Shown here piece by piece: positions 2,751 through 12,276 of a stretch of 12,276 nucleotides of DNA. Within the stretch, counting starts at the first letter, position 1. The number at the start of each line of letters is the position of its first letter. Source of the stretch: Octopus sinensis. Lineage: Eukaryota. The notes under the pieces are model-generated. The model worked only from the letters and a program-made list of their open reading frames with translations. It was not told the DNA's origin and did no database searches. The stretch covers positions 1-12,276 of the forward strand of contig NW_021826639.1 in NCBI RefSeq assembly GCF_006345805.1, in the 5' to 3' direction. Made by a program: the position numbers and the translations under genes.

Positions 2751-3209
2751 TATAATGAATGAGGGAAGCAGAAAATGGAGTTAATGAGAATTTTTATTCA
2801 TCGCAACGATTGTTTCAATCCATCTTGTATCGGTCCCTTGCAGGTAGGATATTGTATAACTGGTTGTGGTACATCCTCCGGGGCAGATGCATGTCATCGG
2901 GTGTCTTTCTTTTAAAGAAGATACCTCTGTAAATATATTCGGTTTCGCTTGGAATGTTGTTGTTGCCAGGAGGCTGTTGTCTCTCATGTTGTAATCCAAG
3001 AAGCTCCTAGCAACAACATGTCAAGTGAAACTGAATATATTTAGTGAGGTATCTTTACATCAAAACAAGGCACCCGATGAGATGCATCTGCACTGGAGGA
3101 TGCAACACAACATGTATAGTAGCCCACCCGCAAGCGACCGTTGCAAGATGGGTCGAAACGGTCGTTGTGATGCATATTCTCGTGAACTCCGTTTCCCCAA
3201 TTCATTATA
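2751..3209. repeat. Diverged inverted repeat (arms ~2751-2975 and ~3002-3209, ~26-bp spacer)
   Basis: The reverse complement of the left arm aligns colinearly with the right arm (e.g. GAATATATTTA..GAGGTATCTT, CACCCGATGA.ATGCATCTGC, CAAGATGG, GAAAC, ATTCATTATA). ORFs 2781-2999(-) and 3044-3226(+) translate to similar peptides for this reason. Confidence 0.85.
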
Positions 3210-3639
3210 TGTATTTATATATGTAACACTGATGTTTATGTGTGTGTGCCTGCGTGCACATTAGTTTTATGCATGTGGACGCTAACCGGCTCAGCAGTTT
3301 TATGAACCCCTTATTAATGTAGCAACGTCAAAAGTAAACATTAGAAATCATAATTCTTCTTTACTTGACTTGATCTGCTAATCATGTGTTTACTCTAGTT
3401 CTGTTGCCCTACAACTTACTATAGTGAGGGGCAAATGTAGGACATCTTAATATGCTTATCATGTCTCTAACACACACATGTATCAGGTTATAGAAGGTCC
3501 TTATGGAAGATTTATTTCACTGACAAACATCAAATGTATTTGATCAGTTTGATCTAGTACCCAGTAGAAAACTATAATGACATTGATATCAACCTGATTT
3601 TCATGTAAATTTTCATTTTCCATTTTTACCTCCACAAAG

Positions 3640-3849
3640 GATTCGGTGAATTTAGAAATTGTGAACAAAGAATATAGGACACCATTGCTTGAAGCTGTTT
3701 CGAACGGTCACCTCGGAATAATTCAGAGGCTTATAGCCAGGGGTGCGAATGTAAATGCTCTCAACCATGGAGGAAATAATTGCCTGCACCTGGCGTTAGC
3801 AACCAAAGAATTTAATTCTGAGGTGGAGCACATGACCATGTTAGATCAG
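3640..3849 (+). CDS. Internal exon (70 codons, phase 0-0) of an ankyrin-repeat protein, possibly a mind-bomb (MIB)-like E3 ligase
   Basis: Polypyrimidine tract + AAG acceptor ending at 3639; donor CAG|GTAAGT at 3849/3850. Translation DSVNLEIVNKEYRTPLLEAVSNGHLGIIQRLIARGANVNALNHGGNNCLHLAL... has ankyrin TPLxxA-G-GANVN-GNxxLHLA motifs. The MIB-like assignment is inference. Confidence 0.9.
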
Positions 3850-7383: not shown

Positions 7384-7562
7384 TTCTGCGAAGAGCTGAA
7401 ACTGGGAAACGAAGAAAGGTACTCTGGCGTGGTGGTTGCCAGTTACCTAGCCCACCACGGGGCCAACTTTTACTGTAAAAACAAAATTGGCAGAACACCA
7501 TTGGACCTAATAGAAAATGAAAATTTAAAAAAGACGTTAAATATGTTATTCCGACCAACGCC
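7384..7562 (+). CDS. Next exon (179 nt, phase 0-2) of the ankyrin-repeat gene; not in the ORF track
   Basis: T-rich tract + TAG acceptor (7381-7383); donor CC|GTAAGT (7563-7568). Open translation FCEELKLGNEERYSGVVVASYLAHHGANFYCKNKIGRTPLDLIENENLKKTLNMLFRPT has an ankyrin YL..HGA....N..G.TPLDL motif and is in phase with exon 3640-3849. Confidence 0.88.
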
Positions 7563-8010
7563 GTAAGTATTCACTGGCAATGACAAGATAAACCATTACA
7601 TTTTCTGTTTTGTATATAACCGTGTTTATATGTTTATATTGTTTTAATTCGACTGATACATTATACTGTCTTAGTGGCTTAAGGAAAGGTTACACAACAA
7701 CAGTAAGAAGAACAATAAACAATATGCAGTTGTTAAGCTAATTAAAGAAAGAACACTATTTTGATTACATTCAAATGATTGGTTGCGTTGACTGTTATAC
7801 CTCTCCTAAAATCCCAGCCAATCTCTCTCAGTTCCCTATTTTAAAGATTTGGGACCAATGAGAAAATGTAGAAGTAAATAGTGAAGTGATGGAATTTATC
7901 TCTCTACCAATAGATTGTTCCTCTGTCTTCTCTGTCCCACCCAGTCATGTCCATGTGAGCTATCCTGAGAAAATCACTACAAACACATACAATGAGTGTA
8001 CATACACGAA

Positions 8011-8110
8011 TACATACATACATACGTATTTATACATGCATACATAGATACATACATGGATACATACATACATACGTATTTATACATGCATACATAGATA
8101 CATACATGTA
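8011..8110. repeat. 50-bp tandem duplication of a TACA-rich simple repeat, followed by (TA)n
   Basis: 8011-8060 and 8061-8110 are identical except 8059 G vs 8109 T. Confidence 0.92.
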
Positions 8111-8118
8111 TATATATA

Positions 8119-8364
8119 AATTGTGAAGAAATATATGTAGGTCAGACGGGAAACGCACTATTAGAACGCTCACGTGTACACCGGCAACAGATTAGAGACC
8201 CAGAGGTCCGTCAGATACCTTTGAGTAACCACCTAGCAACATGTGGTCGGAAAATATATATAATATTTCCATTCTACAAATTACACAGCCCAAGTGAAAT
8301 CGAGAGGAAAATCAGAGAAAAGAATTTTATTGATAAATTCGAACCCAAGCTAAATAGGCAATAA
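8119..8364 (+). pseudogene. 5'-truncated GIY-YIG endonuclease C-terminal half (part of pseudo-LTR); not in ORF track
   Basis: Open frame NCEEIYVGQTGNALLERSRVHRQQIRDPEVRQIPLSNHLATCGRKIYIIFPFYKLHSPSEIERKIREKNFIDKFEPKLNRQ* has the YVG motif, conserved R, H..H, E and terminal LN. No start; the GIY motif is cut off by the microsatellite junction. Confidence 0.88.
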
Positions 8365-8685
8365 TAATAATAATAATACTTAGAGGTATTACTTCCACTG
8401 CTACGACCATGACCACTAACAACAACAACAATACTAAAGGTGATCAAGACGAAGATAGCAGGAAAATTATCTTATTTAGGGTTAAAAGTTCTATTGCCAT
8501 AACCATCACCACTAGCAACAATAATTAAGGTGCTGACAATGATGATGATGACAATTGAAATATAAAAATATAAAAATCTCTGACAAAGGATATTTACAAC
8601 ATTTCTAAAAATAACCCAACAATTGCTGCTTCGGCCAGGGTCAAGATACAGGACTCTTGACATGTCCAACAAAGCGTGATGCCTA

Positions 8686-8830
8686 AACCAATCAGCTCAA
8701 CCAACCAATCAGCTTAAGTAATTGAGTGATACTACACACTGATTGGTCAGAATACAGTTTGCAAAACCTAGCACTCTGGAGCCTACCCAGCTGTATTTAT
8801 AGCACAGAATCAATCATCTTGCTACAGTCA
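8686..8830 (+). promoter_or_regulatory. Putative pLTR Pol II promoter: three CCAAT boxes, TATA-like box, Inr-like site
   Basis: AACCAATCAGCT at 8686-8697 and 8703-8714; inverted CTGATTGGTC at 8739-8748; TATTTATA at 8794-8801; ACAGTC at 8824-8829, ~30 nt downstream of the TATA-like box. Confidence 0.55.
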
Positions 8831-8863
8831 AAAATTGTGAAGCATGACTGTCACACTACTACA

Positions 8864-8908
8864 TGAACCCGAAGATTGCAGAATTCAATGCATGAAAGTA
8901 CTAGTTCA
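8864..8908 (+). ncRNA. Minimal type-I hammerhead ribozyme (U4C core variant)
   Basis: Stem I TGAAC(8864-68)/GTTCA(8904-08); core CCGAAGA (8869-75); stem II TGCA(8877-80)/TGCA(8889-92) with a U-U at its base; GAAA (8894-97); palindromic GTAC (8898-8901); CUA cleavage triplet ending at 8903. Minimal HHRs are an established feature of PLE pLTRs. Confidence 0.8.
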
Positions 8909-8997
8909 ATCAGAATGAATATTTAACATTCTACTATTTCATTTTATTTTATTCAATTATAATATATTATCTTATAATATATCATTATAAGATTGTA

Positions 8998-9003
8998 AAT
9001 AAA
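8998..9003 (+). terminator. Putative polyadenylation signal AATAAA near the pLTR end
   Basis: AATAAA ~90 nt downstream of the hammerhead. The context is AT-rich, so chance occurrence is possible. Confidence 0.4.
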
Positions 9004-9111
9004 ACGTGAAAATCAGACAAGGTTGGAATTCTTTTTATTATATATTCTTCTATACACAATCACACACACCCATATATATATATTCTATATTCCTATTGTG
9101 TATATGCCAAC

Positions 9112-10401
9112 ATGTCTGGAAAGCAACAAACAAAATTAACAGAATCAGAAAGAATTCTAATGGAAATTTCATCGAAATTATCAACACGCATCACGATGAT
9201 TGACACACAATCCTCTATTTTAAAGGAAATAGAAAAACAGTCTACAGACGGAAAACTTGGAAATGAACACATAAACTCTGAAATTAAGAATTTAGCTGAA
9301 ATGATACCAACAATTATAAAATCTACAAGAGAAAGCCTACCACAACCTCCTTGGATGTCAGAAATAAACGAAAGAAATCTGGAAAAAGAGGCACACCGAA
9401 AAAGAGAAGAGATACAGAAGACATGGAAAAAACTCCTTAACATAAGAAAACAAAACTTCTGGAAGGCATATAAATGCGAAAAATATGCTGAAATACATTC
9501 GAAATGGATATCTTTAGCGGCACCCATACTTCCTCGGAAGTACCTAATTAAAGAAATTGCAGGAGAACCAGAGGAAGAAACTAAACTTCGATGGGACCTT
9601 AGTTTGATAAAATTCAGGACCGACATCTCCATTACCCTGTCTAAACAATCCCGCTACAAAGCCAAATACGAAGCTATCGATGATCAAATCAGAGATGAAA
9701 TATCCAAACTAACGACCGGCAATATAACAGAAAAAATGCGAGAACTATGGATCAGAGATATCTCAAAAGAAGAAAGCAGATCAAGAAAGTTTTGGCAGCG
9801 GAAACAATTATTTCTCGACAAATATGCTACAAACTACGGTAAAGACAACAGAGCTCCAAGAAATAGCATTAAAAGTGGACAACCTCACCAACGCAACATA
9901 CACCAGAACACGTGGCAACATGAACACCTGTTTCACCACGAATCGAAGACGAACTACGGTAAGAACTCTTCCCATTTTGTATGCAAACACCCCAATGCAC
10001 ACAACATGAACAAAAAGCACAAACAAAATAGATATTGTTTTGAACAGACCATTAGCAGTAGAAATAACAGATCATTTTCAAGACCTCAACAGAGATTACC
10101 CACAAGAAACTGGACAAAAAACCGATCTAGATCTAGAAGTAAACCCAGATCATTTCTCCAGGTGGTTAAAAACAATGGTAACAAGAAATTGAAAAGTAGC
10201 ATACATAATACCAAAAACAAGACAGAAAACATAACGAAACCAAGTAAAGTACCACAACCAAAACGCAAAATTCATCAAGCAAACATCAACAGGAATATAA
10301 ATCATAACCAGAAAAAAATCCATTTTTTTACGTCAGGACAACAAACACCGGAGAAAGAAAAAATCCAAGAGGAAACATACCCCAAACAACTGAACGTATA
10401 G
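9112..10401 (+). CDS. PLE ORF1, 429 aa: helical/coiled-coil-like N-terminal half and a basic, probably disordered C-terminal half (putative nucleic-acid-binding, gag-like role)
   Basis: Uninterrupted ORF with good start context (GCCAACATG). Residues ~1-245 are E/K/R/L/I-rich with spaced Trp; the remainder is K/R/N/Q/H/S-rich (e.g. RSRSRSKPR). Lies between the pLTR and RT. Confidence 0.8.
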   Translation: MSGKQQTKLTESERILMEISSKLSTRITMIDTQSSILKEIEKQSTDGKLGNEHINSEIKNLAEMIPTIIKSTRESLPQPPWMSEINERNLEKEAHRKREEIQKTWKKLLNIRKQNFWKAYKCEKYAEIHSKWISLAAPILPRKYLIKEIAGEPEEETKLRWDLSLIKFRTDISITLSKQSRYKAKYEAIDDQIRDEISKLTTGNITEKMRELWIRDISKEESRSRKFWQRKQLFLDKYATNYGKDNRAPRNSIKSGQPHQRNIHQNTWQHEHLFHHESKTNYGKNSSHFVCKHPNAHNMNKKHKQNRYCFEQTISSRNNRSFSRPQQRLPTRNWTKNRSRSRSKPRSFLQVVKNNGNKKLKSSIHNTKNKTENITKPSKVPQPKRKIHQANINRNINHNQKKIHFFTSGQQTPEKEKIQEETYPKQLNV

Positions 10402-12276
10402 ATCCTAAAATAATTAATTTATCAAAAAGAGATTTTGACAATGATGAAATCCAACTTCTGTCAAAAGGACTGAAATTCACACCTACACCAACAGCCAACC
10501 ACCAAGAATTAAAGGAGGATATCCAAAAATTCTGTCGAAAATTACGACTTGTAGAATTCTTCGCTAACAAAAGTAATGAGATTGATGAATCCCTAGTAAG
10601 GAATAAATCAAATTTCACCCCACCAAAAGGAAGAAATAACTACCTTGACCAATACATTGATATCCTGTCTAAATTTCCCCTTAGACGCAATACCAATGTT
10701 AGGCCAAACATTAGCAAATCAGAGATGTCTGCATGTAAACGTATACAAAACGATCAAACAATAATAATTAAACAAGCAGATAAAGGTGGTGCAATTGTTA
10801 TTATGGATACCGAATACTATAAGGATTTGGTTGAAGACCAACTGAAGGATACAACCTTCTATTGTGAAATACCCGCAAATATAGACCACCACATCATGAA
10901 AAAGATCAACAACCTGATTTCAACACACCACAACTCACTTACGGATAATGAAAAAGACTACATCACCAATTTTGAACCAAAACCCAGCAACTTCTACGGC
11001 TTACCAAAAATACACAAATCAAAAAACATTCAACAGGCAGTAACAGAACAAGAAAGTGAGTACATAAAATTATTACATCCAAAAGACCTAAAACTTAGAC
11101 CTATTATAGCTGGTCCAGCATGCCCTACACACCGTCTAAGCAATTTTATTGACATTGTTTTGAAACCACTATGTACTTACATACCAAGTTTCATCAGGGA
11201 TGACATCGACTTCCTGTCCCATCTTCCCAAAACAACAGAAACAAATTCAGTTTTACTAAGTTTTGATGTGGTAAGCCTCTACACCAATATTCCACACGCT
11301 TTAGGAATAAAGGCGATTAAATACTGGTTAGAAAAACATAGAGAAGGGATTCCCAGCAGATTCACAGTGCCATTTATATTAGACACAGTCAAGCTTATTC
11401 TAGAAAATAACACATTCTTCTTCAATGGAAAGAATTACATCCAAATTAGAGGCACGGCGATGGGAACGAGGTTTGCTCCCGTTTACGCCAACTCTGTAAT
11501 GGGATACTTAGAAGAACAACTCTACCAAGAGGTGGAGGTAAACTATGGCACTGGGTTTAGAAAGTATATTGAAAAGGCATGGAAGAGATACCTAGACGAC
11601 TGTTTCATAATCTGGACAGAATCTCTAAATACTCTGGAAGAGTTCAATATCCTCCTGAACAACCTACACCCATCTCTCCAATTTACAAAGGAGATGAGTA
11701 GTACCAAATTACCATTCCTGGATATAATGGTAATTAAAAAAGACACCACCATCACCACAGATATATACTATAAACACACAGACACACATCAATACCTAAA
11801 TTTTAAGTCGTGCCATCCACCACATACAAAACGTAACATCCCATACTGCCTAGCCAGAAGAATTTGTACTATTGTAGAAGATGCAAATATCAGGAACAAA
11901 CGCCTAATAGAACTAAGAGAATTTTTGCTCAAACAAAAATACCCATCTCTACTTATAGAAAATGGCATACAGCGGGCTATAAAAATACCTATACAACAAC
12001 TTAGGACAACCCAAGGAAGAGGAAAACAAGAACAAGTCATACCATTCATAGTGACACACAACCCATGTCACCAGAATATCTTCAACATTGCCAAAGCAAA
12101 CCTACCAATCATTGCCCAAAGTAATGAATTAAAAGACATAATCACAGATCGAGCTATGGTGCTTAGTAAAAGACAGCCTAAAAACTTGAAAACATTACTA
12201 ACAAAGGCAAAATTTGACCTCAGCAACAAAGACCAAACATTCACGGTATCTAAATGCAATGATAGCCGATGTGGCA
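10308..12276 (+). CDS. PLE reverse transcriptase ORF (stop-free to window end; endonuclease expected downstream)
   Basis: Hand translation has no stop after TAA 10305-10307. Motifs: KIINLS..LLSKGLKFTPTP, ADKG (10776-10787), FYGLPKIHK (10992-11018), RPII, SFDVVSLYTNIP, QIRGTAMG, RYLDD (YLDD 11589-11600), LPFLD, YYKHTD..YL...SCHP, KRQPKNLK.LL, KCNDSRCG. Confidence 0.96.
10323..10329 (+). promoter_or_regulatory. Candidate -1 ribosomal frameshift slippery heptamer U_UUU_UUU
   Basis: ORF1 reads caT TTT TTT acg, so the X_XXY_YYZ heptamer is in the correct phase. The RT frame is -1 and opens 15 nt upstream. Confidence 0.6.

Follow-up and report, generated by a model that had tools for sequence, protein, structure and literature searches.

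The heptamer U_UUU_UUA is the slippery site of HIV-1 gag-pol, and a -1 frameshift is also employed by the Athena group of Penelope-like elements (PLEs). According to the abstract of Craig et al. 2021 (PMC8557442), canonical endonuclease-bearing (EN+) PLEs are single-ORF elements. The legend of Fig. 1 in the same paper describes an ORF1 separable by a frameshift with a pseudoknot, the clade being unnamed, and as far as the accessible text goes this figure may already cover Neptune. In killifish Neptune, two non-overlapping ATG-defined ORFs are reported, with no mechanism given in the portion of the text consulted (10.1101/2025.05.22.655539). No published account of frameshifting in EN+ PLEs beyond that legend was found in the partial texts compared, which also comprised PMC3846280, PMC5718144, PMC5408684, PMC8969392, PMC5537684, PMC7544508, 10.64898/2026.07.22.740005 and 10.1101/2025.10.02.679949, the Athena/Terminon papers and Arkhipova 2006 being outside this comparison. 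The two-ORF frameshift scheme in EN+ PLEs may be partly known to specialists already.

The locus considered here is a stretch of 12,276 nucleotides from Octopus sinensis (hereafter the window), whose part from position 8118 onwards is a single retroelement. The ORF1 and reverse transcriptase (RT) frames of this element overlap with a -1 offset, which is the family state and part of a clade-wide two-ORF arrangement.

An endonuclease-bearing Penelope-like element and its ORF1

The element is a young, multicopy, endonuclease-bearing PLE. The earlier note on this DNA had already called it an endonuclease-type Penelope-like element, with which the RT motifs and the GIY-YIG domain of complete copies agree. 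The window ends with its contig, inside the linker between RT and endonuclease (EN), and complete copies carry a 775-codon RT-EN frame. In one of them (L031), this frame matches Pfam RVT_1 at E=2.4e-6, which is below the Pfam cut-off, and GIY-YIG at E=2.7e-5. The N-terminal RT motifs of PLEs, KGLKF and DKG, are present in the translation, and the endonuclease, read by eye in complete copies, is of the CCHH type, its two motifs enclosing cysteines and a pair of histidines following further on. The linker reads C-X4-C-X2-C, a spacing that is Neptune-like and unlike Nematis when set by eye against the available Fig. S2 text of PMC8557442; the nearest named RT homologues are bivalve. By its linker and other features the element would be Neptune-type, the tree at hand being one without any named PLE reference.

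Table 1. Positions, on the + strand of the window, of the features of the element
Feature	Position	Strand	Remarks
5' pseudo-LTR (pLTR)	8118..9090	+	Derived from an upstream, truncated copy, of which it keeps the 3' end (endonuclease tail and 3' UTR)
GIY-YIG endonuclease C-terminal fragment in pLTR	8118..8364	+	Pfam GIY-YIG E=1.9e-4 for 8098-8361
Hammerhead-ribozyme-like motif	8864..8908	+	Read by eye
ORF1, 429 aa	9112..10401	+	Open frame 9010-10401, Met at 9112
ORF1/RT overlap	10308..10401	+	ORF1 = 0 frame, RT = -1 frame
RT-endonuclease frame, no upstream AUG of its own	10308..12276	+	Contig end cuts the CX4CxxC linker (starts 12255)
A7 run	10312..10318	+	Not a canonical heptamer in ORF1 phase; not conserved
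Slippery heptamer U_UUU_UUU, predicted -1 shift site	10323..10329	+	In ORF1 phase
ORF1 stop TAG	10399..10401	+	Comes after 25 sense codons, with the count begun at the first slippery codon

Comparison of ten larger stretches gives a tandem unit of about 4.27 kb. The pseudo-LTR sequence returns about 112 nt past window position 12276 in complete copies (L031/L035/L036), and the partial-tandem arrangement is direct in L031, L035 and L036 and inverted in L034 and L040. The 3' edge of the pLTR varies by copy between 9045 and 9105, and its insertion adjoins a TA/TACA microsatellite. The hammerhead-like motif combines a stem I (TGAAC/GTTCA), a core (CCGAAGA...GAAA, in which C replaces the core U4) and a palindromic AGTACT helix III; stems I and II form in its predicted fold (z=0.11). 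An Rfam search over 8000-12276 returned no hammerhead, only weak or microsatellite-driven matches.

Upstream of the element, ankyrin-repeat exons of a host gene lie on the + strand at 3639-3849 and 7384-7563, and the intron that follows them is apparently where the element lies, in the same orientation. At position 8534, the same foreign sequence is joined upstream in two sequencing runs from different studies, as would result either from a truncated insertion common to both or from a transcript that runs across host and element. Nested inverted repeats at 2863-3111, with arms 84-87% complementary and a hairpin of about 250 nt, are perhaps the inverted junction of another mobile element. By eye, 1129-2500 on the - strand is a decayed non-LTR retrotransposon fragment, one frame of which gives a weak PHD-finger match (E=0.0024).

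The N-terminal part of the ORF1 protein (ORF1p) is a long-helix, coiled-coil-like region, its first 255 residues being modelled by AlphaFold2 as five long helices (mean pLDDT 92), and its tail is basic and rich in R/K/N/Q. ORF1p probably binds RNA and oligomerises, and its position and basic tail would suit a role in RNA packaging. A profile search with ORF1 recovered 1042 clusters (50% identity) at E<=0.001. Pfam contains no family for ORF1 and none common to its members, no capsid or zinc-knuckle match was seen for it, no protease match was seen, Foldseek with the ORF1 model found nothing at E<=0.001, and the Atlas search with ORF1 gave no usable match; its best VIA match (Z 9.4, rmsd 5.0) falls in the range of generic helical bundles. 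A single-protein scan of metagenome contigs and an alignment scan of viral contigs returned no relatives. At the C-terminus, a motif (E/D)(E/D)T-x-x-K stands a few residues ahead of the stop in 11 of 36 proteins with tails of at least 20 residues; window positions 10366-10401 encode EETYPKQLNV. Another observation concerns the 5' end of ORF1, where an out-of-frame ATG in weak context lies at 9104-9106, 8 nt upstream of the start codon.

The ORF1/RT overlap, its conservation and the probable mechanism that joins the frames

In the window, the coordinates given by the earlier note all hold: ORF1 ends with the TAG of 10399-10401, the -1 frame of RT is open from 10308 and overlaps ORF1 by 94 nt, and the U_UUU_UUU of 10323-10329 is in phase, reading CAT TTT TTT ACG. 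An X_XXY_YYZ heptamer in ORF1 phase is thus found in the -1 overlap, 5' of the 0-frame stop. The first in-frame ATG of RT is indeed the one at 10725, which sits 107 codons beyond the point where the N-terminal RT motif begins (the note had counted ~105), and no stop interrupts the RT frame between 10308 and the end of the window. The letters of the TAG belong, in the RT frame, to the Ile-Asp codons of the IDPK motif. The T7 run is the only T run of at least 6 in 9106-12276, a stretch with seven A runs of that length. Strict in-phase heptamers number 2 in the 431 codons of ORF1, so that one would fall in the 31-codon overlap with a chance of about 1 in 7. Taken alone, the window makes a weak case; the case for a predicted shift site rests on its relatives.

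A first search of genome G000 yielded 261 candidates, 40 of them scored at 98-100% identity. The copy set comprises 58 related loci, 55 of them anchorable, the first 30 chosen by likeness to the window and the rest by an RT protein match downstream of the junction; the 45 at 97% identity or more are taken as young copies. In the alignment of genomic copies that the earlier note had proposed, the -1 offset is the family state and no continuous family ORF appears: 32 of the 45 young copies show no net frame change across the overlap and so carry two overlapping ORFs, not the single ORF of canonical Penelope. A net indel is present in the other 13, of a type that would not fuse the frames in 10 and of the fusing type in 3 (L017, L042 and L068). 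Each of the latter is private to its copy; that of L068 is cancelled just upstream, and the open frames of L017 and L042 reach merely 388 and 396 aa. In the short-read contigs of three runs from three studies that extend across the junction, no indel is listed at A7 or T7, and one in-frame 3-nt insertion occurs within ORF1. The A7 run is substituted in L025, L026, L069 and L217 and missing from other families. That the split arose through an assembly error, or through a mutation that inactivated one long ORF, is a notion to which an assembly rich in scattered indels (many copies have short open frames) lends some colour; it can practically be set aside, the split being the majority state of the copies, present in independent short-read contigs and common to distant families.

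Divergent families likewise retain the offset and the in-phase heptamer. Seven other G000 families, all with the junction seen and with RTs about 45-53% identical, have U_UUU_UUA in ORF1 phase within a -1 overlap. U_UUU_UUA also occupies the 10323-10329 site in the older related copies L200, L204 and L205, and since these relatives and the other families share it, the U7 of the window can be regarded as a variant of the commoner heptamer. For a wider view, RT starts preceded by 150 nt or more of sequence, 87 in all and including loci from metagenome and genome contigs (loci without that flank were dropped), were grouped into 39 clusters at 72% identity and classed by the longest overlapping upstream ORF, the heptamer being ignored. 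The outcome was 23 clusters in -1 (one of which duplicates family B), none in +1, 5 single-ORF and 11 unclear. U6 or UUUAAAC stands in phase 0 in 21 of the 23 -1 clusters, with one in each of the other phases, and in 8 of the 11 unclear ones. In a quick tree of 37 rows, with four short rows omitted, the four single-ORF clusters that were placed (of five) lie across a supported branch from the window.

Among 31 families, a set selected for having a heptamer and to which L101 was added by hand, the site is UUUUUUA in 23, UUUUUUG in 4, UUUAAAC in 3 and UUUUUUU in 1. An in-frame Met precedes the first RT motif in only 6 of these families, and an RT-frame stop lies directly ahead of the heptamer in 5. 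The proteins carry the same mark: an FL or FF dipeptide occurs within the last 45 aa in 93 of 111 ORF1 homologues, compared with 7 of 111 in the preceding 45 aa taken as a control, the 111 being those with complete core and tail among the best 150 of 1042 clusters and a slight bias to FL/FF matches being possible through the tail columns of the profile. The ORF1 core is found in none of 120 RT matches, and RT in one of 150 ORF1 matches (the best 150 of 1042); a search of longer proteins found no ORF1-RT fusion. The protein P0152 joins ORF1 to RT and skips the first RT motif, and, judged from the protein, looks like a gene model.

The relatives offered several further observations. In L136 (713-770), the -1 ORF1 lacks a standard heptamer and ends in Y-F-R 12 codons before its stop, and similar x-F-R ends occur in P0204, P0210 and P0221; such ends could possibly reflect single-tRNA slippage on U_UUU. 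The distant PLEs L149 (819-4318) and L155 (569-4122) combine an ORF1 of about 550 codons and U_UUU_UUA with an RT frame in which no GIY-YIG motif appears up to its end, and are apparently endonuclease-less two-ORF elements. PLE sequences also occur in contigs filed as bacterial genome assemblies (L170-L179), probably as contaminating host DNA.

Overlapping frames and a U-run being common to most comparable relatives, ribosomes likely slip back one base here, and programmed -1 ribosomal frameshifting is very probably the mechanism that joins RT to ORF1, in a product predicted from sequence. This reading, first put forward in the earlier note, is supported by the clade-wide offset and the phase of the heptamer, and it is favoured because the offset and the phase are fixed, one slippery heptamer is exchanged for another, upstream AUGs are rare and RT-frame stops stand before the heptamer. 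Most ribosomes would start at 9112 and stop at 10399, yielding the 429-aa ORF1p, while slippage of a minority at the pair of Phe codons would produce an ORF1-RT-EN fusion of ~1,170 aa (406 + 768 codons), the two products being made in a gag/gag-pol-like ratio.

The lack of a strong downstream hairpin, a caveat raised earlier, is borne out: in the window, no 3' stem-loop is predicted 5-9 nt downstream (z -0.63 to 0.60, in a model that leaves pseudoknots and long-range pairs outside), nor is 3' structure seen in the average of the main clade (mean z -0.3 and -0.4). Since no RNA stimulator is predicted in the window family, the efficiency of the shift would probably be low and carried by the U-run. 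In distant lineages, a predicted stem-loop lies 8-9 nt past the heptamer (z -4.3, -1.8 and -2.1) and the stop follows after 3-4 codons, a modelled spacing that is the classical frameshift layout. L142 (808-4709), an endonuclease-bearing PLE whose ORF1 is unrelated, would represent a second frameshifting lineage with a classical signal: it has U_UUA_AAC, its stop follows after 3 codons, and its stem-loop measures 9 bp (z -4.3). The ORF1 profile matches neither the ORF1s of L142 and L149 nor the N-terminus of L116.

The main rival to frameshifting is a splice acceptor. In that case the U-run would act as pyrimidine tract for a 3' splice site, and removal of an intron lying within ORF1 would join an upstream AUG to RT. 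Introns are known in PLEs, as reported in the consulted part of PMC4209133, and an AG directly follows the U-run in 21 of 31 families, in the manner of a 3' splice site; the window reads TTTTTTTACGTCAG at the site, with the AG in the same codon phase. However, the adjacent AG is missing in 10 of the 31 families, three of which have U_UUA_AAC and no pyrimidine tract, and splicing predicts neither the 23 to 0 ratio of -1 over +1, nor the phase, nor the constant read-through of the site by ORF1. Splicing appears very improbable. Three contig sets that are RNA only by guess have no splice joint, a result that does not speak for its absence.

Still less credence can be given to RT production by termination-reinitiation or by internal non-AUG initiation near the ORF1 stop, where the TAG overlaps an RT-frame ATA. 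An overlap between the stop and the Ile codon of IDPK does occur, in the window as in family B, but other families place the stop at varied distances before the RT motif, most lack an upstream in-frame AUG, and reinitiation leaves the conserved in-phase heptamer unexplained. Polymerase slippage on T7 or A7 during transcription, which would create a minority of in-frame mRNAs, is equally hard to credit. Homopolymer runs do occur at the site and are longer in some copies (L209 and L211), but most families have U6 only and three have U3A3C, and their phase relative to the ORF1 codons is fixed. Transcriptional slippage requires no codon phase.

Spacing of the ORF1 stop and a possible ribosome queue

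Counted from the first slippery codon, the ORF1 stop lies at most 6 codons away in 6 of the 31 DNA families, at 7-11 in none, at 12 in 9, at 13 in 3 and at 15 or more in 13. RT-coding DNA, taken as the null, places 6.4% of stops at 12-13 codons and 21% at 7-11, and the excess at 12-13 has a binomial p of 2e-7, which becomes 6e-4 when the likeliest two-codon bin is taken as reference; neither value allows for shared ancestry. In proteins, the stop falls at 12 in 32 of 93 homologues and lower in none, where the null expects 52% below 12. Because the ten residues after FL share a mean identity of just 1.06 of 10, it is the length of the tail that is kept and not its sequence. The stop-distance label clusters on the tree (12 changes versus 26.7 when shuffled) and the spacing is therefore largely inherited. 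A contig-end artefact was considered as a source of the 12-residue peak and rejected, DNA with real stops giving a similar rate (9/31 versus 32/93); cluster members on long contigs, where listed, end identically (14/15 and 8/8), 7 of the 10 clusters looked up being single-member and offering no comparison. A 10-codon periodicity (12, 22, 32) is weak and is not claimed.

PMC6815119 and PMC6701860 are reportedly studies of how ribosome collisions alter frameshifting. In yeast 5'P data, a terminating ribosome is positioned 17 nt before the stop and queued disomes at 47 and 50 nt (PMC7685019, consulted in part), so that terminating and queued ribosomes are 30-33 nt apart. With a stop at 12 codons, this spacing puts the A site of the trailing ribosome on the second slippery codon or the next. 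It is conceivable, though on balance doubtful, that a large EN+ PLE clade uses the terminating ribosome, rather than RNA structure, as the roadblock for its -1 frameshift. The ORF1 stop would be held 12-13 codons past the first slippery codon, a queued ribosome would thereby stand on the heptamer, and RT output would be tied to ribosome load and termination speed in a collision-stimulated programmed frameshift. The window family, with its stop at 25 codons, does not fit and would have to be a member that lost the spacing. Also against the roadblock, G000 families E and H have a Trp codon at the stop position of family C, and two main-clade families have the stop at 5-6 codons. Something else, for instance a requirement for a peptide tail, could underlie the floor at 12 codons. 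In the literature, as judged from partial texts, no account was found of a programmed stimulator that consists of a stop codon placed at the distance of a disome.

Comparison with known systems

EN+ PLEs are taught as single-ORF elements, and yet a clade with more than 1,000 ORF1 clusters appears to be retrovirus-like and two-protein. Under such a scheme, annotation drops the ORF1 part and the RT N-terminus of the fusion, and a transposition assay built from the first AUG would miss them too. The helical ORF1p is a candidate structural protein for the EN+ PLE class, and the stop-codon spacing offers a natural test case for the idea that queued ribosomes may drive programmed frameshifting without RNA structure.

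At the coronavirus U_UUA_AAC site, the position of a nearby 0-frame stop affects frameshifting and the stop lets the pseudoknot refold, according to the available text of PMC8168617. The distant PLEs L142 and L174 are alike in combining U_UUA_AAC and a stem-loop with a stop that follows after 3 codons, whereas the main PLE clade has no such structure and its stop distance peaks at one ribosome length. Retroviral gag-pol is similar in that a structural ORF is followed by a polymerase in -1, and the HIV-1 heptamer is that of 23 of the 31 PLE families; the main PLE clade differs from it in having no predicted stem-loop and an ORF1 with no capsid or zinc-knuckle match. Closer to the element, the endonuclease-deficient Athena/Terminon PLEs also have two ORFs, with coiled-coil structural ORFs (PMC6431247, as far as its text was available), but the present element bears an endonuclease and is dispersed rather than telomeric.

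The closest likeness is with the Neptune-clade EN+ PLEs, as described in the accessible text of Craig et al. 2021 (PMC8557442): an RT with a C-terminal GIY-YIG, a CCHH-type endonuclease, a CX2-5CxxC linker with a long spacer, a partial-tandem pLTR and a microsatellite target. Compared with the Fig. 1 legend as available in that paper, the element shows no predicted hairpin, in a model that leaves pseudoknots outside. Unlike the canonical single-ORF EN+ PLEs, it has a separate and conserved ORF1 that overlaps RT in the -1 frame.
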